Assembly: GCA_902492065.1 (NCBI GenBank)
Contig: CABUKE010000003.1
Span: forward strand, 1,942 to 65,941
Length of the DNA: 64,000 nt
Origin: an uncultured Eubacteriales bacterium
GTDB taxonomy: Bacteria > Bacillota > Clostridia > UBA1381 > UMGS1253
Direction: 5' to 3'
Shown here in pieces: positions 6,708 through 41,126 of the stretch; the stretch's first letter is position 1; every line of letters begins with the position of its first letter. The position numbers were made by a program, and so were the translations under genes. A model generated the notes under the pieces. It was given only the letters and a program-made list of their open reading frames with translations. It searched no databases and had not been told where the DNA came from.

Positions 6708-6716
6708 GACGTTCCC

Positions 6717-6911
6717 CTACAGACTGAACACGCTTTTGATGGTATCAAATAACGTGTTGATTTGCCCGATAATCATAAACAGTACGACAATCAGTCCGGC
6801 CAGCGTCGTCAGCATGGCCTGCTCCTCCCTGCCGGAACGGATTAGAACCTGGTTGAGCACGGCAACAATAATGCCGATTGCAGCTATCTGAAAAATCAAG
6901 TCAACTCCCAT
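6717..6911 (-). CDS. spoIIIAC: Stage III sporulation protein AC
   Basis: 64-aa protein with two TM helices (MGVDLIFQIAAIGIIVAVLNQVLIRSGREEQA...), typical of SpoIIIAC. Confidence 0.88.
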   Translation of the reverse strand: MGVDLIFQIAAIGIIVAVLNQVLIRSGREEQAMLTTLAGLIVVLFMIIGQINTLFDTIKSVFSL

Positions 6912-6923
6912 ATCTTTTGCCCC

Positions 6924-7436
6924 CTAAATCAAAAGTACGGCAATCAATGCGCCGCAAAGCACCCCCGCGCTTTGATACACCCTTTTGTTCGTGTCGCATG
7001 TATTTTTTGCGTTTGCAATCAGCATGTTCAGGCTGACGGTCGTATTGTAGATATTCTTTAATTCGTTTTCTACGTCCGACTTGCCGAGCCGGGCCGCAAA
7101 CGAACGCAATGTCTGGATATCCTCATCCGTCAGGCAGAGCGTCTGCCGTCGGTGTGTGAGTTCTTGTTCCCATGCCTGTTCTGTGCTACACCCTTTGGCT
7201 AGACGCTTTTCTACATCGAGAAAAAACGTACCTACAGGCTTTGAAATTGTATGTCCTATATTGAAAAACGCTCTCGCCAGCGAATTTTGTGCAAAACCAA
7301 TCTCGCTTTCCAGCAAAGATAGCGCGTCCTTGAACGAAATTAGGGTGTTTTTTCGCCGCTCAAGCCGGGCCGCCAACAGAAAGCCGATTTTCGTCGTCGC
7401 TCCGACGATAAGAATAATCCCAATTATTTTCAGCAT
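6924..7436 (-). CDS. spoIIIAB: Stage III sporulation protein AB
   Basis: 170 aa, with an N-terminal TM helix and a C-terminal hydrophobic segment around a helical domain. It overlaps the end of spoIIIAA by 7 nt. Confidence 0.85.
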   Translation of the reverse strand: MLKIIGIILIVGATTKIGFLLAARLERRKNTLISFKDALSLLESEIGFAQNSLARAFFNIGHTISKPVGTFFLDVEKRLAKGCSTEQAWEQELTHRRQTLCLTDEDIQTLRSFAARLGKSDVENELKNIYNTTVSLNMLIANAKNTCDTNKRVYQSAGVLCGALIAVLLI

Positions 7437-8401
7437 ATCTTTTTATCCTCTCTGCCATACGTACACAATCTGTCATAGGTACACACTTCCTCCACCGTTC
7501 CGCTTCCGCTGCGCTTGCTAAGCGTAACAAATATGTCAAACAGCGCGCACAGCTCCTGCCCGCCGCTCCGGTACAGGGCGGCGGCGCTGTGGGCATGTAT
7601 GCTCGCGATGACGCATACGCCACACCGCAGAGCGGAACGAATCGCCTCGATATCCTTCCCGCTTCCAATTTCATCCGTGACTATGGCCTGCGGTGACATG
7701 CTCCGCACCGCCATCATCATGCCCGCCGCCTTTGGACAGGCGTCGAGCACATCGGTGCGCACGCCCACATCATAGCCGCATATGCCGCCCGCCATAGCGG
7801 CAAGCTCGCTGCGCTCGTCGATAATGACACTTTTATAACCGCGTGCGGAAATCTGGCGTACCAGGTCGCGCAGGAGAGTCGTTTTCCCACATCCCGGCGG
7901 CGACACGATTAATGTGCTATGGAGCTTACCGCCGTGCAGCACGCTATCTATGACCTTGTCCGACGCACCGTACACCTGCCGCGCAAAACGGTAATTCATT
8001 CCGGAAATTTCTTTTAGAGAGCGAATTTCACCATTTTCAAGCACTGCGCTCCCCACAACGCCAATCCGGTTCCCGCCATTTACGGTCACGTATCCGTGCC
8101 GGAGCTGTTCCTGGCAGGCGTAGACGCTCCCGCCGCAGGCCAGTATAAGTGAACGCTCGAGGTCGGCTTCCGTCACAACATAGCCCGCGCCCTCCTGCTG
8201 GCAAAGCCGTCCTCCGGGCGTGATAAACTGCTGCTGTATGCCAAAGTCGAGCAGCAGAGGCCGCCCCTTTCGCAGACGTACCTCTTCAAGTGCGGTAAGG
8301 TCAACATGGCGCAACAGTTCCTGGATGCGTTCACTCATACAAGATAAAAGCGGACTTGTGTTATGTAGCTGTGCCGATGCAGCAATGTACATCTCTATCA
8401 C
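7430..8401 (-). CDS. spoIIIAA: Stage III sporulation protein AA (secretion-type ATPase)
   Basis: 323 aa with Walker A SPPGCGKTTLLRD. First gene of the operon. Confidence 0.9.
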   Translation of the reverse strand: MIEMYIAASAQLHNTSPLLSCMSERIQELLRHVDLTALEEVRLRKGRPLLLDFGIQQQFITPGGRLCQQEGAGYVVTEADLERSLILACGGSVYACQEQLRHGYVTVNGGNRIGVVGSAVLENGEIRSLKEISGMNYRFARQVYGASDKVIDSVLHGGKLHSTLIVSPPGCGKTTLLRDLVRQISARGYKSVIIDERSELAAMAGGICGYDVGVRTDVLDACPKAAGMMMAVRSMSPQAIVTDEIGSGKDIEAIRSALRCGVCVIASIHAHSAAALYRSGGQELCALFDIFVTLSKRSGSGTVEEVCTYDRLCTYGREDKKIC

Positions 8402-8460
8402 CTTTTCTTTCCGGAAGGCACGCCATTCCTGCTTGCCTGTCCTTTTGCTTTTGTTACTTC

Positions 8461-8489
8461 ATTGTATGTTTGTCCATTTTACATTATGA
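8461..8489 (-). promoter_or_regulatory. Sigma-E-type (mother-cell) promoter of the spoIIIA operon
   Basis: Minus strand reads TCATAAT-14 nt-CATACAAT. This matches the B. subtilis sigma-E consensus as I recall it (kmATATT-14-CATACAnT) and sits about 60 nt upstream of spoIIIAA. Confidence 0.55.
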
Positions 8490-8510
8490 CTAAATTATGT
8501 AAATGAACAG

Positions 8511-8545
8511 AAAAAAGACGTTGCCCGTAAGCAACGTCTTTTTTC
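8511..8545 (-). terminator. Rho-independent terminator after the 8552..9052 gene (A-run/T-run flanked, so potentially bidirectional)
   Basis: Stem gacgttgc/gcaacgtc with a 6-nt loop, flanked by A6 and T6. Confidence 0.75.
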
Positions 8546-8551
8546 TGTTTT

Positions 8552-9052
8552 TTATTCTATTTTTTCAACAGGGACGGCAAGCCGCGCGCCAACAGCGGCC
8601 GCTGCACCAAAATTAAACACAGGCGCTCTGTCATACGCATACCGGTATCCATACCGTTGCGCATCATAACGCCGGAGAGCCGCAAAAGCGTCACTGATTG
8701 CCATGCCGAAGTCCTCTTCCCGCTCGAATGGCTCTGTTTGGAAATATAACATCATACAGGCGGGAAGCTGAACAGTTCGATATCCATCCGGGATTACCTC
8801 TGCACCGTTTAGGGGCAATTCAATTCCGGCGGCAATGCTAGACTCTCCTTCTTCCACAAGGCCAGGCGGAAGCGTAAGCAGCGCCGCAGTGTCCATTTTT
8901 GCCGGGAAGGCGTTCAACACTTTTTCCCATTCACAGCCCATTTCTTCACAAAACGAGAAGTAGTCCGATGCGTGATGTGAAAGCAAGTACACCAGCCGCC
9001 GTGCAGGACGCTGCAACGCCGTGACCGTGCATATTCTCAGGTTTTCCCGCAT
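8552..9052 (-). CDS. Hypothetical cytoplasmic protein, possibly a GyrI-like / AraC-effector-binding-type small-molecule-binding fold
   Basis: 166-aa ORF, 17 nt downstream of the large lyase-like gene. It has no signal peptide. The fold guess rests only on size and sequence style. Confidence 0.35.
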   Translation of the reverse strand: MRENLRICTVTALQRPARRLVYLLSHHASDYFSFCEEMGCEWEKVLNAFPAKMDTAALLTLPPGLVEEGESSIAAGIELPLNGAEVIPDGYRTVQLPACMMLYFQTEPFEREEDFGMAISDAFAALRRYDAQRYGYRYAYDRAPVFNFGAAAAVGARLAVPVEKIE

Positions 9053-9069
9053 AACACTCCCCTTTTCGT

Positions 9070-12000
9070 CTATTTCTTCTCTGTAAATACAATCTCATTG
9101 ACCGAGTTCCACATATTCACAGTGTTACCCGCACCCATATACTTAACGTAGCGCGCCTTCACGCCGCCGAGATCGAACGCCTCCAGCTCGTTTGTCGTAC
9201 CGCTTGACTTCTGCTTTTCAAGCACAGTCGTGTAATTCTCGCCGTCCTCCGACACGGCAATCGAGAATGTATACACGCGGGAGTCGCCGCTGTGGTATGC
9301 AATCTGCACCTGGTCAAGTGTTTTCACATCGCCGAGGTCATAGACCGCCCAGGCCGCCGACTCCGTGCCTTCTGCGGCCCAGCGCGTTGTCATGTCGCAG
9401 TCAACCGAGTTTGTGATTACGCCGCCCTGACCGTCGTCCGCGCTCGCTTCCAAATCATAGACATTGAGCGCATTGGGAATATCGTGCTTGCACGGGTACA
9501 TCCAACGGCCCTGTTCATCCTTTTCCATCATGTCCGTTGTGCCCGGCGTAATGTAAACCGTACGCGCAAATTCGTCATAGCTTACCTGTGCGCCAAAGCT
9601 CTCGGAAATAAAGCGAATCGGTACAACAAAGCGATCTTGGTAAATCGTCGCCGGAACGTCAATCTCTACCGGTGAACCGTCGACATAGGTTGTCGTCTGG
9701 TTCTCTGTGATTTTTACCTCCCGTGTATTCAACGTCGCCGTGGCCGTTGCGCTTGCCTCGTCCCACTGAACTTCCGCGCCAAGCGCCTCAAAAATCGCAC
9801 GCATCGGAACAAGCGTCCGGTCATTTACAACCGTCGGCGCTGCATCGGAATACAGGAACTGCCGGTTCATGCGGATATATACACCTTCCAGCTCCGGCAT
9901 CGGCGAATTGATAAACTGTTTCTCCGCATTGGCGTCCTTGTAAGTCAGTGTGTAGCTGCCCGCCGGCGCAGTAAAGGAAAGGAGTTTGCCTTCTTCCGCT
10001 GCAATTACATCCTGTGTAAAGCCGTCGCCGCCGACTGTCCATGTGCCGGGCTTTACATCGGCAAGCGTATATTGCAGCTCGCCCTCGCCGCTGGTCGTAA
10101 GTGTAAAGCTGTCTGCAATTTCCGTCCCGCTCTTGGCAAATGTTACAACACGATCTGCAATTTTTACACCCGCAAGGACGTCTGTTTCAATCAATTCCGT
10201 ATCGAGATAATAGTCCTTATCGTTGTCGCTCACCTGCATAACATTGAGGAACAGGTCGGACTTTGCTTCCTGCTTCGGCGATACTTCAATGCGCCATGTT
10301 TCGCCCTCATCTGTCTCACTGTCGAGCTCATAGCCATAGTAGTTCGTACCGTCTACCATGTATTCACTGCCCTCGCCGCCAACCTTATCAATCGTAAGGT
10401 TATCCGCCGCCGGAAGAAGTGTGTCGACCGTCATCTTTCCGTTATATGCCTTGCCGGCGCCTTCATCGGCATACGTACGACGGAAAATCGTCTGGCTGCC
10501 GTTAATTTCCGGTTCCTCAAGGCCGTGGAGCAACCATTTCTTTTCAAACGAAGGATTCGACGAATCCACCTTGTCAAATACAATTAGCGCCGCCGGAACC
10601 TCGTCATTGAACAGGTTCAGGAACATGAACGACCGCTTGAAATCCTCAACCTTGTCGGTGTACGCATTCGTCAAATCGCCCTTCAGGTAGGTATAAGCCG
10701 GTGTCTGGGTATCCTCGCCGATTTCCTGCGCCTCTACCGTTGCCATATGGGAACCGTTCTCTTTCATCCACTCAAGCGTAGCCGGCTCAGAGCCGTTCAG
10801 AATCGTGCGCTGTCCGCCGTCGTTCGCCTTCACGCCAAACAGCGTCATCGTTTCGGTTTCGTTCGGGTCGTAAACTGTAATCGTATTATGCGCAATTGTA
10901 CGTTTATTGTATGCGGCGTCATGCGTCGTGCCATAGTCGGTATCTCCGTACTCGCCGCTTCCCCGTGTGCCTCCCTCATAAATACCAGAATCGCTGGCAA
11001 GAATCCCCTTATAATAGAGCTGGAAGTGTCCTGCGTCAAGGTGGTTATGGTTTGCAAAATACCATTCCCCAACCTTCATCTGCGCAACAACCGCCGGTGA
11101 TTCTGCGCCGTCCTCCCAGCCCGTACGCGCTACGCTCATCCCAATCGGGCTGCCGAAGTAACGGCTGAGCGGAAGCTCATAGATGGACCTCGCCGCCAAA
11201 TCTGGGTCATTGAGTACCAGGAACATAATCGGGGAGCTGTCATCATAGGTGTTTAGGAACGGATTTTCCCGGAAATATTCGTCCTTTAAATATGGGTCGC
11301 CCGCCATAGCAGAATCCATAAAGAACTGATGCGCGCCAATATTCCAGTAATTCCACATCGCCGCCGTATCGTTGAACGTATCGCCGTCGCGCAGGAGTTG
11401 GCCGTCTGGACGGCGCAGGTAAATGTGTCCATACAGCATTTGATACAAATTATCGTCGAGCGGCGCAGGCAGTCCCATTTGCGTGATAAAAATCTGCGCA
11501 TACGTGTCAAACCCATGCCGGTATGTACCGTACGAATCGCCCTGATGGTGATAGTGCGCCGTATTCTGGAAGTTACGTACTGGAACAAAATCCTGATAAT
11601 ACCGCCCTGCTACAACATCCCATACATCCGGACGCTCGTCGTAGATTGCAATTGCGAACCCAAGCAAATCGCGCTGGAGCTGCGCCTCACCGGCATGACT
11701 TGTAACGGCGTTCTGCTTCGTCGGCGGCCAGCCAATCTCCATCAAACCTGCCAGCTTTTCGCACTGGGTAATGATTTGCCGCTGCTTTGCCTTATCAAGC
11801 AGAGGATAGCACCAATCGTACACCTCCGATGCGACATAAATAACATAGCCACCGCCGCGCGTTGCATCGCCCGCAGTCGATACCGTCGAAAGATAGTTAA
11901 TCATTGCGTCAACGGCCATGTTTCCACTTGTTTCGTCACCCGTCAGCGCATAATTAAACGCATGTGCCTCAATGATGTTAAGCACACTCTTGTTGATGTT

Positions 12001-13302
12001 CCCCCCGCCATTCGGCGAAGCAGCAAGCATACCGTCCGTCGAGTCGGCCAGGAGCGCCTCATACCGCTCTTTTGCAGCCTGATTCTGCGGCTTATCCATA
12101 TTTTCCAGTATTTCTGGAATATCACTCTTCCGGAACAGCAAGCGCGGATGTTCTGCCGGCGGATTGACCGGCGGCTTCTCATATGGCCCGCTGATTGTCG
12201 TCATCGGCAAATCCTCGATTTTGTCCGGGATTTCCCCCATACCGGAGGGGGTAAACGTCTTATCCGTCACGATAAATTTGTCCACTTTCATGTCTGCTTC
12301 ACGAACAATCAGATCAATTGTATGCTCGCCCGCAGTAATCTGGCCCGATGTAAGCTGTACCCACTGCCAATCGGGCGAGTGTGCCGGCTGGAAATATGTA
12401 TAACTGCGGTCAAGCCCAGCAAACACAGAATCGTCGCCCTCGCCAACCGACATTAAGCGTGCCCATACCGTGTACATCCCCGCGGTATTCACTTTAAACG
12501 TATAAGATGCGTCCGCGTCAGAACCCTTCGCCGGGTCGGAAGCCGGCTTTTCACCGGAGGCTAAAATATACTTTCCACCGGAAGCGTCCTTTGCCTCAGA
12601 AACAATGTACTTTTCTCCTAATACACCGGCCTCTGCCTCGATACCAACACCGTTACCAGCTACCTCAAACACCTTGCCGGCGGGCTTTGTGCCCGATGTA
12701 GGCTTTGCGCTGGCGGTCGGCTGCGCACTTGCTGTCGGACGCGGTGTAGAGTCTGATACACCAGGAATCTCCGCCGGGAGCTTTGTCTTATCCGTCGTTA
12801 CAAACAGCGCGTCAAGCTGAGCACCGTTTTCTCGATGTGTCCACGAGAACGTATGCTTTCCCGCTTTTAGATCCTGTGTCACAACCTCTACCCAGTGGTA
12901 CTCCTCTAAACCACCCGGATGGATTGTCTGCCATGCTTCGTCGTCCCACTTAAAATGGAACGAATCACTGCCGGAGTCACCGCCCACGCCCGGAATATAC
13001 GCTCGTATAAAGACCGTATACGAACCATCGGATGGAATCTCAAACTCCCACCTAACATCCGGCTTAGACAGGGAAGCCGGGTCGTCAAGCCGCCCGCCCT
13101 TGCTGGCAACGATATACTTTCCGCCGCTTGCCGCGTTGTCTTTGAATGTTTCAATGTCATTGTTCAGCTCCCCATCTTCACACTCGACAAGCGTATCTAC
13201 GCCGAATGTCGCTGCAAACGCAGGAATGCCGACGCCAGACAGCATCGTAACCAGCATTGCAACCGTCAGCAGCATACTAACAAGTTTTTTGCCTTTCCTC
13301 AT
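9070..13302 (-). CDS. Secreted multidomain heparinase II/III-like (DUF4962-type) polysaccharide lyase candidate
   Basis: 1410 aa. Order of parts: signal peptide MRKGKKLVSMLLTVAMLVTMLSGVGIPAFA; two CBM6/35-like modules (ECEDGELNN...ASGGKYIV; IEAEAGVLGEKYIV..ASGGKYIL) joined by a PT-rich linker; EHPRLLFRKSDIPEILENM (DUF4962-like N-terminus of the toroid); HNHLDAGHFQLYYKG (heparinase II/III motif region); a copper-amine-oxidase-N-like 'stalk' domain (NDRTLVPMRAIFEALGAEV); and a C-terminal F5/8 type C (discoidin) domain (TTRWAAEG...). RBS is GGGAGGA. Confidence 0.8.
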   Translation of the reverse strand: MRKGKKLVSMLLTVAMLVTMLSGVGIPAFAATFGVDTLVECEDGELNNDIETFKDNAASGGKYIVASKGGRLDDPASLSKPDVRWEFEIPSDGSYTVFIRAYIPGVGGDSGSDSFHFKWDDEAWQTIHPGGLEEYHWVEVVTQDLKAGKHTFSWTHRENGAQLDALFVTTDKTKLPAEIPGVSDSTPRPTASAQPTASAKPTSGTKPAGKVFEVAGNGVGIEAEAGVLGEKYIVSEAKDASGGKYILASGEKPASDPAKGSDADASYTFKVNTAGMYTVWARLMSVGEGDDSVFAGLDRSYTYFQPAHSPDWQWVQLTSGQITAGEHTIDLIVREADMKVDKFIVTDKTFTPSGMGEIPDKIEDLPMTTISGPYEKPPVNPPAEHPRLLFRKSDIPEILENMDKPQNQAAKERYEALLADSTDGMLAASPNGGGNINKSVLNIIEAHAFNYALTGDETSGNMAVDAMINYLSTVSTAGDATRGGGYVIYVASEVYDWCYPLLDKAKQRQIITQCEKLAGLMEIGWPPTKQNAVTSHAGEAQLQRDLLGFAIAIYDERPDVWDVVAGRYYQDFVPVRNFQNTAHYHHQGDSYGTYRHGFDTYAQIFITQMGLPAPLDDNLYQMLYGHIYLRRPDGQLLRDGDTFNDTAAMWNYWNIGAHQFFMDSAMAGDPYLKDEYFRENPFLNTYDDSSPIMFLVLNDPDLAARSIYELPLSRYFGSPIGMSVARTGWEDGAESPAVVAQMKVGEWYFANHNHLDAGHFQLYYKGILASDSGIYEGGTRGSGEYGDTDYGTTHDAAYNKRTIAHNTITVYDPNETETMTLFGVKANDGGQRTILNGSEPATLEWMKENGSHMATVEAQEIGEDTQTPAYTYLKGDLTNAYTDKVEDFKRSFMFLNLFNDEVPAALIVFDKVDSSNPSFEKKWLLHGLEEPEINGSQTIFRRTYADEGAGKAYNGKMTVDTLLPAADNLTIDKVGGEGSEYMVDGTNYYGYELDSETDEGETWRIEVSPKQEAKSDLFLNVMQVSDNDKDYYLDTELIETDVLAGVKIADRVVTFAKSGTEIADSFTLTTSGEGELQYTLADVKPGTWTVGGDGFTQDVIAAEEGKLLSFTAPAGSYTLTYKDANAEKQFINSPMPELEGVYIRMNRQFLYSDAAPTVVNDRTLVPMRAIFEALGAEVQWDEASATATATLNTREVKITENQTTTYVDGSPVEIDVPATIYQDRFVVPIRFISESFGAQVSYDEFARTVYITPGTTDMMEKDEQGRWMYPCKHDIPNALNVYDLEASADDGQGGVITNSVDCDMTTRWAAEGTESAAWAVYDLGDVKTLDQVQIAYHSGDSRVYTFSIAVSEDGENYTTVLEKQKSSGTTNELEAFDLGGVKARYVKYMGAGNTVNMWNSVNEIVFTEKK

Positions 13303-13447: not shown

Positions 13448-14287
13448 TTATTTATCTCCCCGCTTTTTAAGCGCACCCGGCAGGGTGGAAAAATTCTTTT
13501 TATATTCCCGCAAAAAGCTGGACAACGACCCAAACCCGCTCGCATAGCATGCCTCCGTAACTGAAAGCATCCCCGTTTCCAAAAGCTTGCGCGCATAATT
13601 TGCACGCAGCGAATTTAAATAGCTTTTAAAGGTTTGTCCAACACTTTGATGGAACACCGTACAAAAATATTTTTCACTCAGGCCAGTAATAGCCGCCACC
13701 TCCGCAAGCGACAAATCGTCGCGAAAATGGCTATGGATATACAGAATTGCCCGCCGGACCGGCTCTTTATCCGGCTCTGAAAAAGGTGCATACGCAAACG
13801 CGAACCGCCGTGCTATTGTAATAAAAATGCATTCCAATATATCCTTCATAAAAATTTCTTTATACTTACGTTCCGCTTCAAACTCCTCCACCAAACGGGC
13901 AAATAGCGGATACACGCTATCAAATTCATCCGCCCGCAGTGTAAACATAATATCGTTTTTATAACTGAGCAACGCGTCAAGCAGTTGTGTCCGGATCAGG
14001 CTTTCGTCCAGCATGATATTAATCAGCTCAAGCTCCTCTATAACATGGATTCCATGGTAATCGGAAGGGTTTAAAACAAAAATATCCCCCCTGCCAAGCG
14101 GATATTCTCTGCCGTTTAAAAGGTGTGTTGCCTTTCCGGAAAGCACGAGTTCAATCTCAAAAAAATCGTGCCAGTGCAGCTTGAAATCCTTTGAAATTTT
14201 CTTTCTCGAAACGCTCATCAAAAACCCCTGCGGGATTTCATCTTCTGCACTGAACCGAAGAATATCCACCGTCTTTTTTCTGCTCAA
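13448..14287 (-). CDS. AraC family transcriptional regulator (cupin sensor + HTH)
   Basis: 279 aa. N-terminal cupin-like region (HWHDFFEIELVLSG) and C-terminal AraC double HTH (LSLAEVAAITGLSEKYFCTVF...). Transcribed divergently from the ROK operon. Confidence 0.88.
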   Translation of the reverse strand: MSRKKTVDILRFSAEDEIPQGFLMSVSRKKISKDFKLHWHDFFEIELVLSGKATHLLNGREYPLGRGDIFVLNPSDYHGIHVIEELELINIMLDESLIRTQLLDALLSYKNDIMFTLRADEFDSVYPLFARLVEEFEAERKYKEIFMKDILECIFITIARRFAFAYAPFSEPDKEPVRRAILYIHSHFRDDLSLAEVAAITGLSEKYFCTVFHQSVGQTFKSYLNSLRANYARKLLETGMLSVTEACYASGFGSLSSFLREYKKNFSTLPGALKKRGDK

Positions 14288-14447
14288 TACACATCCCTCC
14301 CTCTACCATTATAACGTAAAAATTTATATATACAACCCGATATCGTACTTTTTGCAATATTTTTGTGAGTTTTTAGAGAGTATCTCCTCTATTGTTTTGC
14401 TATAATAAAAAACAACATGTTAAAAAACTGGATAAAGGAGTGGTACG

Positions 14448-15416
14448 ATGCTGGTTGGAATTGATATCGGCGGCACCAAGTGTGGCGTTTGCTGTGGAGA
14501 GGTGTCTGGCAATTCGGCGATGATTCATAAAAAGCTGCAATTTCCAACGCCGCAGGACGGCAATCCTTACGCTGTATTGGACTTGTTTTGTGAAAAAATA
14601 AAACAACTCATGCCGGAAAAGGACATTGACGCAATCGGCATTAGCTGCGGCGGGCCGCTCGACAGCAGCAGCGGGATGATTCTGTCGCCGCCAAATCTGC
14701 CGGGCTGGGATAACGTGGACATTGTAACGTTTTTTCAGGAGCAATACGGCGTACCCGTCTATCTGCAAAACGATGCAAATGCCTGTGCAATGGCAGAATG
14801 GAAGTTAGGCGCCGGGCAGGGGCTGTCCAGTCTTATCTTTCTCACCTGCGGCACAGGTATGGGCGCGGGATTAATTCTGGATGGGCGGCTCTATCACGGC
14901 GCGTCTGACCTGGCCGGGGAAGTCGGCCACATCCGCCTGGATCGTTTTGGACCGTCCGGATTCGGAAAATCAGGGTCGTTCGAGGGCTTTTGCAGCGGGG
15001 GCGGCATTGCGCAGCTCGCGCGGGCCAAAGCGTTAGAACAGCTCCAGCTTGGTAAACAGACAGCATACTGCAAAAGCTATGCCGAGTTAGACGGGATTAC
15101 GGCAAAATCCGTCGCAGACTGCGCCTATGCAGGCGATGCACTTGCACGCGAAGTATACGAAATCAGTGCGGAAAAGTTGGGCATGGCTCTGTCACTGCTT
15201 GTTGACCTCTTAAACCCACAAGCCATCATTATCGGCAGTATTTTTACCCGCAGCCGTGATCTGCTTTGGGATGGTGCGCGGCACGTTATGGAGCGCGAAT
15301 GTATTCCCGTTTCCTATGGCGCATGTGAAGTAAAAAGTGCCCAGCTTGACGACGACATTGGCAACTATGCCGCGCTGATTACCGCAACAGGGCTTGGACA
15401 AATAAAAGAGCCATAA
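14448..15416 (+). CDS. ROK family sugar kinase (atypical, lacks the Cys-rich zinc motif)
   Basis: N-terminal MLVGIDIGGTKCG ATP-binding motif and ROK core LQNDANACAMAEW...GEVGHIRL. The position of the usual CxCGxxGC motif reads FGPSGFGKSGSFEGF. Confidence 0.8.
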   Translation: MLVGIDIGGTKCGVCCGEVSGNSAMIHKKLQFPTPQDGNPYAVLDLFCEKIKQLMPEKDIDAIGISCGGPLDSSSGMILSPPNLPGWDNVDIVTFFQEQYGVPVYLQNDANACAMAEWKLGAGQGLSSLIFLTCGTGMGAGLILDGRLYHGASDLAGEVGHIRLDRFGPSGFGKSGSFEGFCSGGGIAQLARAKALEQLQLGKQTAYCKSYAELDGITAKSVADCAYAGDALAREVYEISAEKLGMALSLLVDLLNPQAIIIGSIFTRSRDLLWDGARHVMERECIPVSYGACEVKSAQLDDDIGNYAALITATGLGQIKEP

Positions 15417-15438
15417 CACGAGAAAAGGAGGAGAAGTA

Positions 15439-16065
15439 ATGGAAGAATTATTTGCGCGGTATCCCGCACTGCACGTATGCAAAAACGAAATCGAGCAGGC
15501 TCTGCAAACCATGGAACAGACATACCGCTGCGGCGGAAAAGTTTTGCTGTGCGGCAACGGCGGAAGCCACGCAGACTGTGACCACATTGTAGGCGAATTG
15601 ATGAAAAGTTTTATCCTGCCGCGCAGGACGCCGCAAAAAGACGTTGAAAAATTGGAACAGCTTTATGGAAGTAAGGCCGCCCAGCAGTTTGCTTCCTGTC
15701 TTCAGCGCGCTGTCCCGGCGATTTCCCTGCCGTCGCAGGGGGCGGTACTTTCTGCTTATGGCAACGACGTTTCGCCCCAAATGGCGTACGCACAGCTCGT
15801 ATATGGCTACGGCCGCCCGGGCGACCTGCTGCTCTGCCTTTCGACCTCCGGCAATTCAGAAAACATTGTAAATGCAGCAAGGATAGCAAAAGCCTTCGGC
15901 CTCTCCGCACTCGCATTTACGGGGCAAAACGCCTGCGCGCTCGACTCGATTTGCGATGTTGTCATAAAAGCGCCGGCAGAAGAAACCTATCGGGTACAGG
16001 AGTATCACCTGCCAATCTACCATTATTTATGTATGGAGTTGGAAAAACGGCTGTTTTCAGACTAA
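15439..16065 (+). CDS. SIS-domain phosphoheptose isomerase-like protein (GmhA family)
   Basis: Collinear with E. coli GmhA as I remember it: GGKVLLCGNGGSHADCDH, YGND, LLCLSTSGNSENIV, and RVQEYHL near the C-terminus. Confidence 0.75.
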   Translation: MEELFARYPALHVCKNEIEQALQTMEQTYRCGGKVLLCGNGGSHADCDHIVGELMKSFILPRRTPQKDVEKLEQLYGSKAAQQFASCLQRAVPAISLPSQGAVLSAYGNDVSPQMAYAQLVYGYGRPGDLLLCLSTSGNSENIVNAARIAKAFGLSALAFTGQNACALDSICDVVIKAPAEETYRVQEYHLPIYHYLCMELEKRLFSD

Positions 16066-16110
16066 AGAATATAATATAAAATTATTATTCATCTCAGAAA
16101 GGTGGTAAAA

Positions 16111-18396
16111 ATGGAACGCACAATATCTTTAAACGGAGAATGGAAGTTATATTTCTACGAAGAAAGCAAAGCGGACATCCGTACGTCTGAACAGCTTGTA
16201 GTTAGCGGCATTGCGCCAATTCCTGCCTTTGTGCCGGGCAATGTGGAGCTTGACCTGTCGCGCGCCGGCATCTTGCCGGGGGATCTGTATAAAGGAATGA
16301 ATATTGTAAAGGCAGAGAAATTCGAGTCCTATTCGTGGTGGTATGAAACCGCCTTCCCTACGCCCGAATATGATGCCGATGCGTCAGTGGAACTGCGCTT
16401 TGCAGGCACCGACTGCATAGCGGAATACTTTTTAAACGGTAAGCTGCTCGGACGCTCGGACAACGCCATGATTCCCGTTGTTTTTGATGTGACAGAACAG
16501 TTGAAGCCCGCCGGAAACAACAGCTTATTTGTACATATTTTTTCCCCGATAAACGCGGCGTACAACGTGGAATATGAAATGTATTCCCTGCAAAATTCGT
16601 GGCATGCAAACTATGAAACACTCGGCCTGCGCAAGCCGGCGCACAGCTTCGGCTGGGACATTATGCCGCGTGCTGTGAGCGCGGGGCTTTACAAAGGGGT
16701 TAGCCTCACTGTTACGTCCTGCTGCCGTTTTATACAGCTTGCCTACCATGTTGTAAGATTGGAAGAGAACGCGGCAGTCCTGCGATTTTCCTACGAACTC
16801 GGCGTACGGCCCGAAATGGTTGCACAAGGTCTACAGCTTGTCATAGAAGGCTGCTGTGGCGAATCACATTTCCGGCAAAGCGCGCCCGTCCGCTTTAAGG
16901 CGGGATATGTGGAATTTTCTATAGAAAACCCAATGCTTTGGTGGCCGTACGGCTATGGAGAGGCGAATCTGTACGCCACAACCGTCACAATTCGGCAGTG
17001 CGAAAAAGTCTTAGCACAGCGGACACTTAACGTAGGTATCCGCACTGTAGCGCTCTTGCGTTCCGACAGCCTGACTGATGAAAATGCACAGTTTCAATTT
17101 CAAGTAAATGGCGTGGATATCTTTTGCCGCGGGTCGAACTGGGTACCGCTCGACGCCTACCATAGCCGCGACGCCGCGCGCTATGAACAGGCATTCGCAT
17201 TGGTTAAAGACATCGGTTGTAATATTCTGCGCTGCTGGGGCGGCAACGTGTACGAGCAGGAGCAGTTTTACGATTTCTGCGACAAAAACGGCGTTATGGT
17301 CTGGCAGGATTTCTCTATGGCCTGTTACGTTTATCCAATTACAGACAAATTCTGCAAACGTCTTGAAGCGGAAGCAACCTACATTGTCAAATCACTCCGT
17401 ACGCATCCGTCTATTCTTCTCTGGTCGGGCGACAATGAGTGCGACGAAACGCTGTACCTGCACGGAATTGACCCGGCAAAAAACAAGCTGACCCGCCAAG
17501 TCCTGCCCAACGTGGTTCTGCGCCACGACCCGACGCGGCCATATCTTGCAAGTTCGCCCTACATATGCACCAAAATTTTTGAAGCAGCAGACCGTGGCAG
17601 TCTGCCGGAGGAGCATCTCTGGGGGCCGCGCGACTACTATAAAAGCAGCTTCTACGCAAACAGCAGGGCAAAGTTCGTCAGTGAAACGGGGTATCACGGC
17701 TGTCCGGGCAGGAAATCAATTGAGAAATTTATCGACAGTGATTTTATCTGGCCATATGAAAACAATCCACAATGGAACCTGCACTCGTCCGATCAACAGA
17801 ACCGCGACGACCGCGTAATGCTGATGGCGAACCAAATCCGCCAGCTTTTCGGCTCTGTGCCGGATAATCTTGATGATTTTGCGCTCGCGTCGCAAATTTC
17901 ACAGGCGGAAGCAAAAAAGTTTTTCATCGAGCGTATACGCATACAAAAGCCCTATACGAGCGGCATCATCTGGTGGAACCTGCTCGACGGCTGGCCGCAG
18001 ATGTCTGATGCGGTGGTCGATTATTATTTTGAAAAAAAATTGGCGTATCATTATATCAAACGCAGTCATGCCCCATTTTGTATTATGTTAGGCGAACTCG
18101 TAAACTGGGGGCATGACATTGTAGCGGTAAATGACACTCTGCAAAAAAAGGCCGGCAACTATGTCATTTCCGACATAGAAACGGGAGAACGGCTTGCAGA
18201 AGGAGCATTTTCCCTGCCGTCAAACGGGCACAAAACGCTCGGCAGACTGAACATGTTCTATTCTGCGCAGCGCATGCTCCTAATTTCTTGGGAAATAAAC
18301 GGGCAGAAGGCCTATAACCACTACCTATGCGGCATGCCTGCCTTTGACTTTGTACAATATCAAACATGGATGAAGCTGTTGTCACGATATGATTAA
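16111..18396 (+). CDS. Glycoside hydrolase family 2 (beta-mannosidase / exo-beta-glucosaminidase-like), cytoplasmic
   Basis: About 761 aa counted from the ATG at 16111 (RBS aaaggtgg 5 nt upstream; the ORF track begins at GTG 16102). Motifs seen: SLNGEWKLYFYE, an acid/base-type WSGDNECDE, and a nucleophile-type VSETGYHG. No signal peptide. Confidence 0.82.
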   Translation: MERTISLNGEWKLYFYEESKADIRTSEQLVVSGIAPIPAFVPGNVELDLSRAGILPGDLYKGMNIVKAEKFESYSWWYETAFPTPEYDADASVELRFAGTDCIAEYFLNGKLLGRSDNAMIPVVFDVTEQLKPAGNNSLFVHIFSPINAAYNVEYEMYSLQNSWHANYETLGLRKPAHSFGWDIMPRAVSAGLYKGVSLTVTSCCRFIQLAYHVVRLEENAAVLRFSYELGVRPEMVAQGLQLVIEGCCGESHFRQSAPVRFKAGYVEFSIENPMLWWPYGYGEANLYATTVTIRQCEKVLAQRTLNVGIRTVALLRSDSLTDENAQFQFQVNGVDIFCRGSNWVPLDAYHSRDAARYEQAFALVKDIGCNILRCWGGNVYEQEQFYDFCDKNGVMVWQDFSMACYVYPITDKFCKRLEAEATYIVKSLRTHPSILLWSGDNECDETLYLHGIDPAKNKLTRQVLPNVVLRHDPTRPYLASSPYICTKIFEAADRGSLPEEHLWGPRDYYKSSFYANSRAKFVSETGYHGCPGRKSIEKFIDSDFIWPYENNPQWNLHSSDQQNRDDRVMLMANQIRQLFGSVPDNLDDFALASQISQAEAKKFFIERIRIQKPYTSGIIWWNLLDGWPQMSDAVVDYYFEKKLAYHYIKRSHAPFCIMLGELVNWGHDIVAVNDTLQKKAGNYVISDIETGERLAEGAFSLPSNGHKTLGRLNMFYSAQRMLLISWEINGQKAYNHYLCGMPAFDFVQYQTWMKLLSRYD

Positions 18397-18470: not shown

Positions 18471-21400
18471 TTATTTAAACTCAACCTCAAGAATGGAATT
18501 CCATGCATTTGAGGTATTACCACTTCCGGAAATTCTTACTGCTTTAACCGTAGTCGGCTGCGGAAGCTTATACTCGGCAAGCGTATCTTCCTTGTTGGTC
18601 TGTGTACCATCAAACACAGTCTCAAAGTTTTCCCCATCTTCTGAAATTTCGAGCTTAAACATGGTGCTTCTTTCATTTGATTTCCAGAAAGCAATCCATA
18701 CAGAAGAAATCTCCCGCGGGTTTGCAAAGGTGTACTTAATCCACTGTTCGCCTTCTGCCGCCCAGCGTGTGCCGAGATCGCCGTCAAGCGTGTTTGCCGG
18801 CACATTGGCCGGTTCCGGAACGTCGCTGGCCTCAACCTCAATTTCCGCCATTGCACGCAGCGTAATATCATAGATATTGTACGTTTCCGGGTCATTGGGG
18901 TCATAAACCCTGACAGAAGCAATTCCCGGGAGTGCCGCCGCCTGTGTAATTTCTACTGTATAACCGTCCTCTGCTGTCGCATTCACAGTCGGAACAGCTG
19001 TCGTGCCGTAAGGCAGAACAACTTCATAGTTGGTAGCAAGCGGGCTGAAATTTCCCACCGTTTGTCCGTCAACCGTCAAATCAGTAAGACGCGGAATAAC
19101 GATTTCCCCGTCCGGAATCGTCCAGTCTGCGATGTCCGTATAGGTATATTTGTAATCCGGCTCCGTCTGCGTCCCTTCAAGCAGGCGGAACTCCACCGCC
19201 AGCTTGTAGTCCGTTACACCGGACATATGAATCGCAAGCTTCTTCCATGCGCTCCGGTCATACTCCGCTTCGTTCTTCTGCGGAGAGGTCGGCAACGGGT
19301 CAGCCGCCATTACTTCAAATTTTGCATCTGCCATATCGGACACAATGCCAACCCACATACGTTTGCCCGCTTTTTCAATAACAGCCGATTTGCCGTCCGG
19401 TGCAACGGTAATTTCGCCGTCCTGTACGTGTGCAAACCACCACACTTCCGACGCACTTGGCAGCGTCATTTCGTCCTGTACCACAACTGCCTTACGGTTG
19501 TCGGTAAAGAGTATGCCTCTCTGCGCCTCCTTTACCTTATTGCCATGCGCTGGCGCCATGTCAACGACAGCAATTGCGCCGCGCGGTTTGCTTTCATGGC
19601 GGGTAATCTTCGTTGTCGCAGAAACGACTTGGTCCTCCGACGTCCCCGGGTTTACCGTTATTGTATTGTGGCCTTCCGCACGGTTACGGTAGTACGTCCA
19701 GCGCGTACCGCCTGCGCCACCGCTGAAGTAGCTCGGCAGGTTATAATTTTCTGTGCCGATATCGCTGATAAAGCGTACACCGCCTGCATCAATCACAAAG
19801 TTACCACTGTCAAGGTTACCGTGGTTAACGCCATTGTAACCACCATGCAGCCCCGTGAATACTGTGCCGGAATCGTTCCAGTCGCCGCGCATTGTCACTG
19901 TTTCAACACCGGTCATATAGCGGTCAAGTGGAAGATGTACTTCTTTATTAATATTGTTCAGGTCATAGTGCAGGATATCATGGATGCCTGCCGCCTTTCT
20001 CCCGCTTGTAATATCCTGTAAGCGCATACCCGCAAGGTCCGGATTGCCAATTTTATTTGCAACCCAGAACAAATGAGACGTATCAACGGTTCCCTCGCCG
20101 CAGTCATTAAAGTTCCACATGCCGTTTGTGCCTTCAATATAGTTCGGGAAGTAGCATGTCGTATCAAGCCCCGGTGCATTAAACAGACCATAATCCGTCC
20201 CCATTGCAGAATCAAGACACTCAATCATATAGAACAGATTGTTCGTGCCGTATGCCCAATAGCCAGGCCCTTCCGGATAGCTTCCGTCCGGCGCGTAGCA
20301 GCGAATACCTTTTTCAATCGACTTGAGTACCTTCCCCATCAAATCTCCGGCGTCTTTTTCATATTCCGGCAAATCGCCAATTGCCGCACACGCAAGCGTC
20401 AAACCGCCGTTGCACACAGCGTTCCAGTTGTTGTCCGTGTTCGTCCAGCCGCTCCGGCCAAATGTTCCGTGCTTCGGCTCCATATCCTCCGTCGTACCGG
20501 CATACGCGCCGATTCCGGCCTGAATGCCATGCTCGAACAAGCCTTTTTCAATAACTTTGCGCTGCTCGTCGGTAAATCCGTCATACATCCAGTCGTATCC
20601 AATTGCAACGCCTTTCATAATGCCCGCTGCATCGAGGAAGTGGCCCGGGTGCCAGTTATCAAAGCCACAAAGAACCTCGATGTGGTCATATGCTGCGTCA
20701 ACATATTTCTGGTCACCGGTCATCTGATAAGCCAAGCCCCATTGCAACATATAGCTTTCCGTATTTGTCCCCTTGAGCCGGCCACCCTCATCGACACTGT
20801 AGACCGGCGGTTGTGCGCTCGCCGCCGTGTTTTCCGCATTTTTTAACTGCTTATCAATCCACTCTTTCATCAGCGGGTCCGTATCATACAAAGACTTAAT
20901 CCGTGCAAAATCGTCCGCATTGGCCAGAATTCTTGGATGCTGCGGTGCGTTTGCCTTTAAGTCGGAGATAATCTTTTCCCCGCCCGGCCGTTCATACGTG
21001 AACTCCGCCATAACATTCAGCATCAGCGCCAAATCTGTATCCCGGTTAAAAATATTTTCTGTATCAGAAATAACAATCAGCCCCATATCGTCCCAGAATA
21101 CCTGCTTGCCAAGTGCTTCCGCAATTGCGCGCAATGGTACAAACGTCCGGTCATCCCCTGTCACAATTGCCGCAGTGTCAATCTGGATTTCCTGCCCGTT
21201 TTTATAAATCTTATCTGAACCGATGGTAAGCTCAATTGTATCATTGCCGAGCTTTACCGTAACTTTTTCCGTCGCACCGCCGTCATACGATACCTCAGCG
21301 CCGAACGCCTCTGAGATAAACCGCATTGGAACGAGCGTACGGTCATTGCTTGTGAACGGAACCACGTTTGCATTGTTTTCGTCAATTGGCAGTTTTTCCT

Positions 21401-22703
21401 TTTTCACCAGTGCAGATGGGCAGTCAAGCTTTAGGCAGACTGCGTTCTCCACCCGTGAAAAGTCGGATGGGTTTGCCGTCGGAACCGGTGTTGCTTCTAC
21501 ATTGGAGCCGTCGAGATAAATGGTATCCAAATAGAGTACCGTCGACGTGTCGTTCTCCATGCCCCAGCCCGTGGAGAAAAGCTTGAGCGAGTCGATCTGA
21601 TGCCAGCCAATCGGCGTACGTGTCTTGCCGAGTGAAGCGAATGTCCCCTTCACTTCTGTCCACGCCTGCGGTGCAAGCGTCAGCGACCTGCCGTAATAGT
21701 CGTCGCCATCCGTTGTCGCAGCATTCTGGCTATCGAAGCGCATATAAAGCTTCTGCTCTTTATCAGAGCTGTTATATATGTTGAAGCTATATTCCGTGTA
21801 GCAGCGCAAATCACCCGAAATACTGTTGAATATAAGATTTGGCTTATCCGCAAACTTCCACTCTGCGCTGTATTTTGCAGACTTTACATTTTTGCTGTCT
21901 GCCGTCAGTCCCATTGCCTTAATCGCGTCTTTATCGTCGCAGTCAAACACGGCCGTTTTTCCCTTCATTGTTACATTGCTGTCCGGTGTTGAGGACGGTG
22001 CTGCAGAAGGCGTAAACGTATTAGTCGGTTCCTGTACATCCTTGCCCGTTATATCCTTCGGCTCCGTCGCTTCATAAATCTTCAAATTGTCCACGAGCAG
22101 GTCAGCCCCGTTTCCACTTTTTGCAATATATAAACGCAGCAAGGTCAGCCCCGTCGCCGCTCCCGACACCGGAACGCCTTTTTCAACCTGCTTTCCGTCT
22201 ACATAACTGTCATATGTAAAAGTTTCCAGATTAAGTACGGCTGCAACATTCAACCACTTGCCCTTTTTTAGTGTACCAAGTTCCTTCTCGCTCCCAGCCG
22301 AGATTATCTTGCCATTACTAATTTTAAACAAGCGACCATCTGTTCTTGATGAATCTTTAAACTGAAGATCTCCGCTGATGCCCGCCTTTGTCGAGGAAAG
22401 ATCCATCTCTACAACGATGTACTTCGTCGGGTTCGGCATCGAAACCTCTATGTAACAATCCTCAGTGACAGCATCCGCCATCTGAATCTTAACATACTGG
22501 TTGTCGCCTTCTTTTTCCAGCGCGATGGAATTCGACTTTGGCATAACGATAAGCCCATCCTCCAGCGCCTTGCCCTCCTCATCATAGGTGCGGTTGTAAA
22601 AGATTGCCTCTCCTACATCATCCGCCGCAAAGGATAGCGTCGGAAAACACGTCACGACAAGCGCCATAACAAGCGCCCATATTATTGCTTTACTTCGCAT
22701 CAT
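18471..22703 (-). CDS. Secreted multidomain heparinase II/III-like polysaccharide lyase candidate (second subfamily)
   Basis: 1410 aa. Order of parts: signal peptide MMRSKAIIWALVMALVVTCFPTLSFA; LamG-like domain (about aa 27-215); a second beta-sandwich (about 250-400); two copper-amine-oxidase-N-like repeats (NDRTLVPMRFISEAFGAEV; DDRTFVPLRAIAEALGKQV); QHPRILANADDFARIKSLY followed by NWHPGHFLDAAG and VNHGNLDSGNF (alginate-lyase/heparinase III-like core); a cadherin-like beta-sandwich (LTDLTVDGQTVGNFSPLATNYEVVL); and a C-terminal F5/8 type C domain (GTRWAAEGEQW...). Confidence 0.8.
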   Translation of the reverse strand: MMRSKAIIWALVMALVVTCFPTLSFAADDVGEAIFYNRTYDEEGKALEDGLIVMPKSNSIALEKEGDNQYVKIQMADAVTEDCYIEVSMPNPTKYIVVEMDLSSTKAGISGDLQFKDSSRTDGRLFKISNGKIISAGSEKELGTLKKGKWLNVAAVLNLETFTYDSYVDGKQVEKGVPVSGAATGLTLLRLYIAKSGNGADLLVDNLKIYEATEPKDITGKDVQEPTNTFTPSAAPSSTPDSNVTMKGKTAVFDCDDKDAIKAMGLTADSKNVKSAKYSAEWKFADKPNLIFNSISGDLRCYTEYSFNIYNSSDKEQKLYMRFDSQNAATTDGDDYYGRSLTLAPQAWTEVKGTFASLGKTRTPIGWHQIDSLKLFSTGWGMENDTSTVLYLDTIYLDGSNVEATPVPTANPSDFSRVENAVCLKLDCPSALVKKEKLPIDENNANVVPFTSNDRTLVPMRFISEAFGAEVSYDGGATEKVTVKLGNDTIELTIGSDKIYKNGQEIQIDTAAIVTGDDRTFVPLRAIAEALGKQVFWDDMGLIVISDTENIFNRDTDLALMLNVMAEFTYERPGGEKIISDLKANAPQHPRILANADDFARIKSLYDTDPLMKEWIDKQLKNAENTAASAQPPVYSVDEGGRLKGTNTESYMLQWGLAYQMTGDQKYVDAAYDHIEVLCGFDNWHPGHFLDAAGIMKGVAIGYDWMYDGFTDEQRKVIEKGLFEHGIQAGIGAYAGTTEDMEPKHGTFGRSGWTNTDNNWNAVCNGGLTLACAAIGDLPEYEKDAGDLMGKVLKSIEKGIRCYAPDGSYPEGPGYWAYGTNNLFYMIECLDSAMGTDYGLFNAPGLDTTCYFPNYIEGTNGMWNFNDCGEGTVDTSHLFWVANKIGNPDLAGMRLQDITSGRKAAGIHDILHYDLNNINKEVHLPLDRYMTGVETVTMRGDWNDSGTVFTGLHGGYNGVNHGNLDSGNFVIDAGGVRFISDIGTENYNLPSYFSGGAGGTRWTYYRNRAEGHNTITVNPGTSEDQVVSATTKITRHESKPRGAIAVVDMAPAHGNKVKEAQRGILFTDNRKAVVVQDEMTLPSASEVWWFAHVQDGEITVAPDGKSAVIEKAGKRMWVGIVSDMADAKFEVMAADPLPTSPQKNEAEYDRSAWKKLAIHMSGVTDYKLAVEFRLLEGTQTEPDYKYTYTDIADWTIPDGEIVIPRLTDLTVDGQTVGNFSPLATNYEVVLPYGTTAVPTVNATAEDGYTVEITQAAALPGIASVRVYDPNDPETYNIYDITLRAMAEIEVEASDVPEPANVPANTLDGDLGTRWAAEGEQWIKYTFANPREISSVWIAFWKSNERSTMFKLEISEDGENFETVFDGTQTNKEDTLAEYKLPQPTTVKAVRISGSGNTSNAWNSILEVEFK

Positions 22704-38721: not shown

Positions 38722-38851
38722 GGCTCTCCCCTCCCTTTCCGCCATTATTTTTTATTATACGCCCATTAATGACATATGTCAATAATATATTAAATATTTC
38801 TTGCATAAACCGACATGGTATGATACAGTAAAGACCAAAAGGAGGAACAAT

Positions 38852-41031: not shown

Positions 41032-41126
41032 AAAAAAACCTCCTGTATTTTTGATAGCAACCATATTACTATCAGTATACAAGAGGTTATCCAAGATTAC
41101 AGTAGGCGTTTTTGCCGCCAGTGTGG

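Follow-up and report, generated by a model that had tools for sequence, protein, structure and literature searches.

To our knowledge, the only role described for the SIS-domain isomerase GmhA is to catalyze the first step of heptose biosynthesis. The heptose is destined for lipopolysaccharide, capsules, and S-layer glycans, and the enzyme has attracted interest as an antibiotic target. The glucomannan operon of Bacillus subtilis, gmuBACDREFG, includes the glycosidase GmuD, the ROK kinase GmuE, and the cupin mannose-6-phosphate isomerase (PMI) GmuF. Here, we analyzed a 64-kb stretch of DNA (64,000 nucleotides [nt] of contig CABUKE010000003.1 from an uncultured Eubacteriales bacterium, hereafter called the window), in which a GmhA-type enzyme is encoded in a putatively inducible operon together with a ROK-family kinase and a glycosidase of family GH2. 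Our comparison of this operon with related loci indicates that the three proteins likely form a cassette that works in the catabolic direction, from glycosidase to kinase to isomerase. As for the sugar that it handles, we tentatively favor D-glycero-D-manno-heptose, which would be converted to sedoheptulose-7-phosphate.

According to the list of open reading frames (ORFs) and to Pfam, the ROK, SIS (SIS_2/SIS), and GH2 genes correspond to ORFs 14448-15416, 15439-16065, and 16102-18396, all on the + strand. The ROK stop codon (15416) is separated from the SIS start codon (15439) by 22 nt. As mechanically listed, the GH2 ORF begins with a GTG (16102) located inside a ribosome-binding site (RBS), AAGGTGG (16098-16104). 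Because this GTG falls within the RBS and because a start at ATG 16111 gives 761 amino acids (aa), the length of the orthologue in the related locus L004, we read ATG 16111 from the sequence as the true start, which leaves a 45-nt gap after the SIS gene. These coordinates agree with a preliminary description of this DNA, which had reported three codirectional genes with gaps of 22 and 45 nt next to an AraC-type regulator gene; the latter is indeed adjacent and divergent (13448-14287). An RBS (AAAGGAG) lies immediately 5' of the ROK ATG at 14448, and an extended -10 element (TGcTATAAT, 14398-14406) was read by eye in the control region. A consensus scan of that region yielded neither a paired -35/-10 site nor a convincing consensus promoter, which would fit a trait common among activator-dependent promoters. 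No intrinsic terminator was found within the operon by a terminator scan, and the three genes are presumably cotranscribed. All three proteins lack a signal-peptide-like N terminus.

The preliminary description had proposed that the cooccurrence of these genes be checked in other genomes. Screening a single genome from each species for the clade motifs retrieved at least 581 genomes with a relative of the SIS protein, mostly Oscillospirales-type gut metagenome-assembled genomes, with Paenibacillus, Cohnella, and Gracilibacillus also among the matches listed. We then compared 78 nonredundant loci (80 from genomes, 12 from metagenomes, and the window, minus five duplicates and the loci without a called SIS gene), in which genes were called by a simple ORF choice. 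An orthologous zinc-less ROK gene was adjacent to the SIS gene in 56 of the 78 loci, usually directly upstream, the two genes being closely spaced or overlapping at their start and stop codons. Since this adjacency recurs in so many loci from many species, the ROK-SIS grouping is not due to chance. An AraC gene was found at most four genes away from SIS in 29 loci, usually divergent and just upstream of the operon. Glycosidase genes were also recurrent near SIS: GH2 of the window type in 15 loci (14 of them ROK linked), GH38 in 13 (12 ROK linked), and GH5-like in 5, such that 30 of the 56 ROK-linked loci also carried a GH2, GH38, or GH5-like glycosidase. The GH38 partners are Ams1-like α-mannosidases. 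The GH5-like partners are of two kinds, one resembling the endo-mannanase 8d89 and the other resembling 7bob and 6gvb; indeed, in four loci, a 645- to 675-aa protein encoded 3' of SIS matches the GH5 β-mannanase 7bob and the N-glycan-core β-mannosidase 6gvb. A transaldolase gene was present in six loci, and a gene for a 308-aa HAD-like protein replaced ROK in nine. Among 88 operon-neighbor representatives, as judged from the top 25 families, no further family, for example, transporters, phosphomannomutase, GH130, or transketolase, was recurrent. As α- and β-acting glycosidases of unrelated folds have only the released manno-configured glycone in common as a product, we propose that the kinase and then the isomerase act on that sugar. 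Together, these comparative data support the glycosidase-kinase-isomerase route that the preliminary description had suggested, its substrates being predicted from sequence.

The SIS gene has other partners in some loci. In nine of them, including L060, L070, L081, L086, L087, L051, and L022 (several from Candidatus Fimenecus), a protein of 308 to 320 aa with a C-terminal HAD domain pairs with SIS in place of ROK, often with a PNPOx-like gene 5' of it. In L022, the HAD protein, a GSU2086-family protein, and a PfkB kinase are encoded next to SIS, the PfkB kinase matching best to the kinase domain of HldE. In locus L072 of Gracilibacillus alcaliphilus, genes for a class II fructose-bisphosphate-aldolase-like protein, a class II aldolase/adducin-family protein, and a DUF1537-type kinase lie directly 5' of SIS-ROK (6887-9802). 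DUF1537-type kinases are of the four-carbon acid-sugar kinase type, and this arrangement may reflect a connection with C4 or sedoheptulose-bisphosphate metabolism.

The SIS protein of the window matched solved GmhA structures with E values of ∼1e-28 in two aligned blocks separated by an insertion. All four GmhA hallmark motifs that had been noted initially were located, GNGGS at residues 39 to 43, GND at 108 to 110, STSGNS at 135 to 140, and QEYH at 187 to 190. The zinc and catalytic residues, which are D61, H64, E68, Q175, and H183 in Burkholderia pseudomallei GmhA (PMC5705639), are present as D46, H49, E53, Q187, and H195, and they are invariant or nearly so across the SIS clade. The phosphate loop is also present (S135-T136-S137...S140, corresponding to Ser-Thr-Ser-x-x-Ser). 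An AF2 model of the protein (pLDDT of 92.8) was compared to known structures with Foldseek, and the top 37 matches were all GmhA or DiaA, with TM scores of 0.80 to 0.88 and an E value of ∼1e-15 for B. pseudomallei GmhA (2x3y/2xbl). The protein scored below the NCBIfam GmhA equivalog cutoffs, with 98 to 122 bits against cutoffs of 209 to 320 (PRK13936, 121.8 versus 276; TIGR00441, 118.2 versus 209; PRK00414, 97.8 versus 265), and these alignments, too, were divided into two blocks. The insertion comprises 29 aa (residues 63 to 91), with AF2 helices at 66 to 76 and 78 to 87, and its site corresponds to a loop that apo structures of GmhA show as disordered (PMC5387315). Compared to the Escherichia coli sequence, the insertion measures 15 to 31 aa across the Firmicute SIS clade that it defines versus 2 aa in E. 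coli, and the position of E. coli R69 (Glu+4) is occupied by Ser or Gly (Ser in the window) next to an invariant Lys at Glu+3. The modeled GmhA fold and the intact catalytic site show that the SIS protein is a Firmicute-type GmhA, predicted to be a zinc-dependent aldose-ketose isomerase. Its fold is other than that of the cupin type I PMIs ManA and GmuF, and it does not belong to that family; if it acts on mannose-6-phosphate, this would represent a PMI-like action outside the cupin PMI family.

In rough neighbor-joining and unweighted pair group method with arithmetic mean (UPGMA) trees, which we used only for asking whether genomic contexts separate, the ROK-linked proteins had a sister subgroup, ∼50% identical to them, in a cluster of 96 with zero ROK-linked members. 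In locus L074, the SIS gene accompanies an HddA-like kinase gene (NF049969, 432 bits) within a glycosyltransferase cluster. Relatives of L074, from Christensenellales, Clostridium botulinum, and others (L093 to L097), have operons composed of genes for a GHMP (HddA-like) kinase, SIS, a nucleotidyltransferase, and a GmhB-type HAD protein, to which GDP-mannose-dehydratase-like, RmlD-like, glycosyltransferase, and Wzm/Wzt genes are often added. The insertion and all clade-specific residues are common to the ROK-linked group and its sister. Only two positions differed between ROK-linked and HddA-linked proteins, Y117/L120 in the former versus F/Q in the latter, and F/Q is kept by the ROK-linked Paenibacillaceae, by five HAD-linked members, and by some other ROK-linked members. 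Thus, our search for specificity-determining residues yielded no discriminator between the two groups. Because just these two positions differ and the ROK-linked Paenibacillaceae retain the biosynthetic residues, the sequences give no sign of a new substrate.

In view of this resemblance, the SIS protein might be a conventional biosynthetic GmhA that provides heptose-7-phosphate for a surface glycan, with coincidental neighbors. The ∼50% identity to the GmhAs of GDP-heptose operons is in its favor. However, we found no gene for HddA/HldE, GmhB, HddC, or a glycosyltransferase in the operon or among the scanned window ORFs, which were a part of the total. Furthermore, the recurrent tight adjacency to ROK, as well as the divergent AraC gene and the glycosidases typical of inducible catabolism, is at odds with such a role, which we judge extremely improbable. 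The preliminary description had recognized the lack of the other heptose-nucleotide genes, and it had held that a clustering of the SIS protein with biosynthetic GmhA in a genome carrying the rest of the pathway would overturn the catabolic proposal. The clustering is what we observed, and the pathway genes, which are the decisive part, are absent from the operon.

The kinase contains a ROK domain (residues 3 to 306; Pfam, 3.4e-50) and no DNA-binding or helix-turn-helix domain, and it scored under every NCBIfam equivalog cutoff. Its zinc-Cys motif is substituted by GPSGFGKSGSFEGFCSG. Alignment with the glucokinase of Streptomyces griseus (3VGK), in which GFGKSGSFEGF faces CGCGSQGCWE, established the loss of the Cys motif, which had been described earlier as a replacement by FGKSGSFEGF. 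The three-Cys zinc site is missing in all 63 ROK orthologues that we recovered, most of which keep only the Cys of a conserved FCSG, and the replacement motif GP.G[YF]GK.GSFEGFCSG is common to all of them. In contrast to the zinc site, the ATP motif (GIDIGGT), the catalytic Asp (LQNDANA), and the ExGH sugar motif (GEVGH) are kept in the 63 proteins.

The third protein contains the Pfam domains Glyco_hydro_2_N2, _N, _2, and _C and aligned over its full length (residues 9 to 763) with CapGH2b (PDB 9nfe) with an E value of 2.5e-176. Further matches were the β-mannosidases 5n6u (4e-93) and 2vjx (9e-86). The DNE and SETG motifs, which had been read initially as catalytic in a protein lacking a signal peptide, contain the acid/base E443 and the nucleophile E525 (E446 and E528 in the numbering of the GTG-16102 ORF). 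These residues align with E465 and E553 of CapGH2b, and the pair is invariant in 20 orthologues. In the accessible text of its report (PMC12770490), CapGH2b originates from a β-mannan polysaccharide utilization locus (PUL) of a capybara-gut Bacteroidales, was assigned to GH2_13 by its authors, and hydrolyzes p-nitrophenyl (pNP)-β-mannoside at ∼100 U/g (∼0.1 U/mg), which is the sole activity given there; that text reports no natural substrate. It also describes a -1 subsite that is unusually open, two Trp residues of other β-mannosidases being replaced by Ile and Asp (PMC12770490). In our alignment, the unusual subsite residues I201, W532, G533, R535, R605, and D670 are all kept in the window GH2. 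The accessible text further presents CapGH2b as a β-mannosidase with a disulfide redox switch, C427-C517 (PMC12770490). The equivalent of C427 is C405 in the window GH2 (C408 in GTG-ORF numbering, ∼17323 to 17325), within a MAC motif that is invariant in 20 Firmicute orthologues. Because the partner C517 is unaligned, with a Cys four residues earlier in the window protein (SPYICTK) that most Firmicute orthologues lack, the switch is probably not conserved in these Firmicute GH2 enzymes, which are predicted to be cytoplasmic.

On these bases, the AraC-associated cassette could operate as follows. In the cytoplasm, the GH2_13 enzyme would free a manno-configured sugar from an imported β-glycoside, and the zinc-less ROK kinase would phosphorylate the terminal primary hydroxyl of that sugar, giving heptose-7-phosphate in the case of heptose. 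The SIS protein, as a GmhA working in reverse, would then convert heptose-7-phosphate to sedoheptulose-7-phosphate, which would enter the pentose-phosphate pathway; in some relatives, the operon-encoded transaldolase would perform the last step. We infer the direction of the flux, the identity of all substrates, and the acceptance of heptosides by mannosidase-family enzymes.

Transaldolase uses sedoheptulose-7-phosphate, and bringing a free aldoheptose to fructose-6-phosphate plus erythrose-4-phosphate takes precisely three enzymes, a kinase, GmhA, and transaldolase. We considered that the transaldolase partners might instead be fructose-6-phosphate aldolases, which would suit a mannose route. 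All six resemble B. subtilis Tal and differ from E. coli FsaA in carrying SAEVIS and SPF.GR, with Glu rather than Gln and Phe rather than Tyr at the two positions that discriminate transaldolases from these aldolases, which ruled out that function. The transaldolase (TAL) gene occurs in several arrangements, namely, TAL-GH38-ROK-SIS (L052), ROK-SIS-TAL-GH38 (L008), GH2-ROK-SIS-TAL (L036), and AraC/TAL-ROK-SIS in L046 and L073, where no further same-strand pathway gene was found. As transaldolase is missing from most cellulolytic clostridia (PMC7029132), these operons may have acquired it as a pathway gene. Locus L009 contains a minimal AraC/TAL-SIS operon (6351-7618) with neither kinase nor glycosidase, and the source of its substrate is explained by neither a mannose nor a heptose route.

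We favor heptose because the isomerase is indistinguishable in sequence from the GmhAs of GDP-heptose operons and because of the link to transaldolase. Heptose as the sugar, our tentative reading, would account for the transaldolase and the kinase partner as well as for the sequence of the isomerase, at the cost of one assumption, that the mannosidase-family enzymes and ROK accept mannose extended by one carbon. By analogy, the atypical features of CapGH2b, its open -1 subsite and its low activity on pNP-β-mannoside, would also be in line with heptose. More specifically, the cassette could constitute the first catabolic pathway for bacterial heptose, composed of mannosidase-family heptosidases, a ROK heptose 7-kinase, a reversed Firmicute GmhA, and transaldolase where present, a proposal that we advance with some reserve.

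Several points weigh against heptose. It requires that three mannoside-active families (GH2_13, GH38, and GH5-like enzymes of two kinds) accept this sugar, which in gut and soil is much scarcer than mannose. CapGH2b, the nearest GH2 homologue of solved structure, belongs to a β-mannan locus and hydrolyzes pNP-β-mannoside, transaldolase is found in just 6 of the 78 loci, no sugar transporter lies next to the operon in the 64-kb window, and the functions of all enzymes of the cassette are predictions. In Cohnella phaseoli, the gene order (ABC permease, GH5 [endo-mannanase 8d89, 1e-33], SIS, ROK, and GH2) looks like that of an ordinary manno-oligosaccharide locus. In the literature, we found no description of a heptose catabolic route, a heptosidase, or a free-heptose 7-kinase.

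The other reading that we weighed is plain mannoside catabolism, in which the GH2 would free D-mannose, ROK would be a mannokinase, and the SIS protein would be a noncupin PMI yielding fructose-6-phosphate. We regard this as a realistic, if doubtful, alternative. The SIS protein would then take the slot of ManA or GmuF in known mannan operons, for a sugar that is ecologically abundant. The glycosidases that adjoin ROK-SIS, GH2_13 in 14 ROK-linked loci, Ams1-like GH38 (unrelated to GH2) in 12, and both GH5-like kinds, are consistent with mannose, as are the measured β-mannosidase activity and mannan-PUL origin of CapGH2b together with the conservation of its subsite residues in the window GH2. 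No ManA-like ORF was detected in 93 sequences, a weak test given that the E. coli ManA query has low sensitivity for Firmicute PMIs. In addition, the clade departs from canonical GmhA in the 15- to 31-aa insertion at the active-site lid and in the residue at the E. coli R69 position, and these departures could alter the length of the substrate accepted. In contrast, the ROK-linked SIS proteins do not differ consistently at any residue from their GDP-heptose sisters, and the transaldolase found in some operons, including AraC/TAL-ROK-SIS, has no role in the conversion of mannose to fructose-6-phosphate. Our literature search found neither a GmhA-family enzyme with PMI activity nor any link between SIS/GmhA and ROK plus mannosidases. 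Thus, the choice between mannose and heptose that the preliminary description had left has been sharpened on both sides, heptose gaining from the transaldolase and the likeness to GDP-heptose GmhA and mannose gaining from the glycosidase families and the activity of CapGH2b. With either sugar, the catabolic route is undescribed; indeed, full-text searches of the literature found no description of such a route, a catabolic use of a GmhA homologue having been thought novel at the outset.

Outcomes other than heptose or mannose are, taken jointly, unlikely. Among them, the kinase and isomerase might be broad, acting on both mannose-6-phosphate and heptose-7-phosphate, or might act on another sugar phosphate, such as an amino-sugar phosphate from the N-glycan core. 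Indeed, β-mannosidases of the GH5_18 and GH2 types cut Man-β1,4-GlcNAc and also give GlcNAc, and the relatives of the SIS protein also pair with the 308-aa HAD-like protein (nine loci) or a PfkB kinase (one locus). Furthermore, SIS proteins formerly labeled phosphoheptose isomerase include NagS, a GlcNAc-6-phosphate dehydratase (PMC12680351). However, the window SIS matches GmhA models and structures rather than those of the NagS/MurQ type and retains the full GmhA zinc and catalytic set, which ruled out a NagS/MurQ-type function, and the product shared by the α- and β-mannosidase types is the manno-configured glycone, not GlcNAc. We consider such broad or alternative activity improbable.

Two secreted heparinase-like lyases are encoded on the strand opposite to ROK-SIS-GH2 and bracket it (Table 1). 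Both have a signal-peptide-like N terminus and exactly 1,410 aa, with differing domain orders, and their F5/8 type C domains are CBM32-like. The operon might thus be part of a heparin/heparan-sulfate-type degradation system, with ROK as a GlcNAc or GlcN kinase for the lyase products. The same lyase-[ROK-SIS-GH2]-lyase order is kept in L004, whose SIS is 77% identical, and one of the lyases (9070-13302) exceeds the NCBIfam HepB equivalog cutoff. Nevertheless, the bracket was seen only in the window and L004 and is missing from the other loci with sufficient flank, where ROK-SIS recurs with mannosidase-type enzymes, and substrates of this type contain no β-mannoside or heptoside. A general functional link between operon and lyases was thus ruled out in favor of a lineage-specific one; the lyases are possibly linked to the operon in this lineage only, and the heparin hypothesis appears very improbable. 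A third heparinase II/III-like ORF (759 aa, 50917-53196, - strand) adjoins a Mem_trans/SBF-type permease gene (53231-54163, - strand), and the two may represent an intracellular oligosaccharide lyase with its transporter.

Table 1. Features in and around the ROK-SIS-GH2 operon of the window
Feature	Position	Strand	Basis
Secreted heparinase II-like lyase, 1,410 aa, with Cu_amine_oxidN1 and F5/8 type C domains	9070..13302	-	NCBIfam HepB, 614.7 bits (cutoff, 600)
AraC-family regulator with cupin sugar-binding domain and two HTH motifs	13448..14287	-	Pfam HTH_18, 4.5e-19; AraC_binding, 2.7e-14; divergent from operon
Divergent control region	14288..14447	+	Extended -10 and RBS, read from sequence
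ROK-family sugar kinase, 322 aa	14448..15416	+	Pfam ROK, 3.4e-50
GmhA-clade SIS isomerase, 208 aa	15439..16065	+	GmhA models, structure matches, AF2 model
GH2_13 (β-mannosidase type), predicted cytoplasmic, 761 aa from ATG 16111	16111..18396	+	Match to PDB 9nfe
Second secreted heparinase II/III-like protein, 1,410 aa, with Hepar_II_III_C, DUF4962, Cu_amine_oxidN1, and F5/8 type C domains	18471..22703	-	Pfam

The window also carries the spoIIIA operon and spoVAD, and because of these genes, we assign it from its sequence to a spore-forming Clostridia bacterium. A 166-aa ORF (8552-9052, - strand) with no Pfam match separates the spoIIIA operon from the first lyase gene. Farther away, a gene for an Imm5-like immunity protein (38801-39445, + strand) is convergent with a gene for a 534-aa protein with an ADP-ribosylglycohydrolase domain (39490-41094, - strand), which is unrelated to the operon and has an AraC regulator gene just upstream (41127-42017, - strand).

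If heptose is the sugar, the cassette would represent a catabolic route not described before, in which the glycosidase and the kinase have new specificities, and would suggest an unrecognized flow of carbon from the surface glycans of gut bacteria. Loci L093 to L097 are complete GDP-heptose-type operons (HddA-like kinase, insertion-bearing GmhA, HddC, and GmhB) of gut Clostridia, often with 6-deoxy-heptose-type dehydratase and reductase genes, and one of the proteins, P0135 from Christensenellales, is by itself indexed in 361 blocks of the collection. Gut Firmicutes may commonly bear heptose-containing surface glycans. Since the sister GmhAs belong to such operons and the Christensenellales protein is found in many metagenome samples, gut and soil Firmicutes could, under the heptose reading, feed on or recycle heptose-containing surface glycans. 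If mannose is the sugar, the SIS clade would be a second, noncupin family of PMI, and many gmhA annotations in Firmicutes would be misread. In both cases, the automatic labels "D-sedoheptulose 7-phosphate isomerase" and "SIS domain-containing protein" conceal a conserved pathway.

The operon can be compared with known systems protein by protein and as a whole. The zinc-less N-acetylmannosamine kinases of Fusobacterium nucleatum and Staphylococcus aureus (PDB 5nck and 6q26) are distant matches of the window ROK (E values from 1e-22 to 1e-7). They are presumably ROK proteins without the CxCGxxGC zinc site, a trait that they share with the window ROK, whose clade differs from them in having its own conserved replacement motif. 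The GH2 protein and CapGH2b are both predicted to be intracellular; in the accessible text on the CapGH2b PUL, ROK and SIS are not named among the colocalized enzymes (PMC12770490). NagS, a GlcNAc-6-phosphate dehydratase of Streptomyces, is a SIS protein of sugar-phosphate catabolism, as we propose for the window SIS, and its structure was solved using 3CVJ, annotated as a putative phosphoheptose isomerase (PMC12680351). It is the nearest precedent for a mislabeled "phosphoheptose isomerase" in catabolism, on a different branch of the SIS proteins, since NagS is a relative of MurQ and not of GmhA and the window SIS shows no sequence match to NagS/MurQ-type structures. The gmu operon of B. subtilis has the same logic as the window operon, an intracellular glycosidase, a ROK kinase, and an aldose-ketose isomerase in one inducible unit, but it employs a cupin PMI in place of the GmhA-type SIS and a GH1 in place of the GH2_13 enzyme; the window operon has an AraC-type regulator and contains no phosphotransferase system or ABC transporter. 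Finally, the Firmicute form of GmhA from the GDP-D-glycero-α-D-manno-heptose pathway shares with the window SIS the fold, the zinc ligands, the catalytic Glu and His, the phosphate loop, and the helical insertion. The neighbors of the window SIS are ROK, a glycosidase, and AraC instead of HddA, HddC, GmhB, and glycosyltransferases, and its implied flux would run from aldose phosphate to ketose phosphate.

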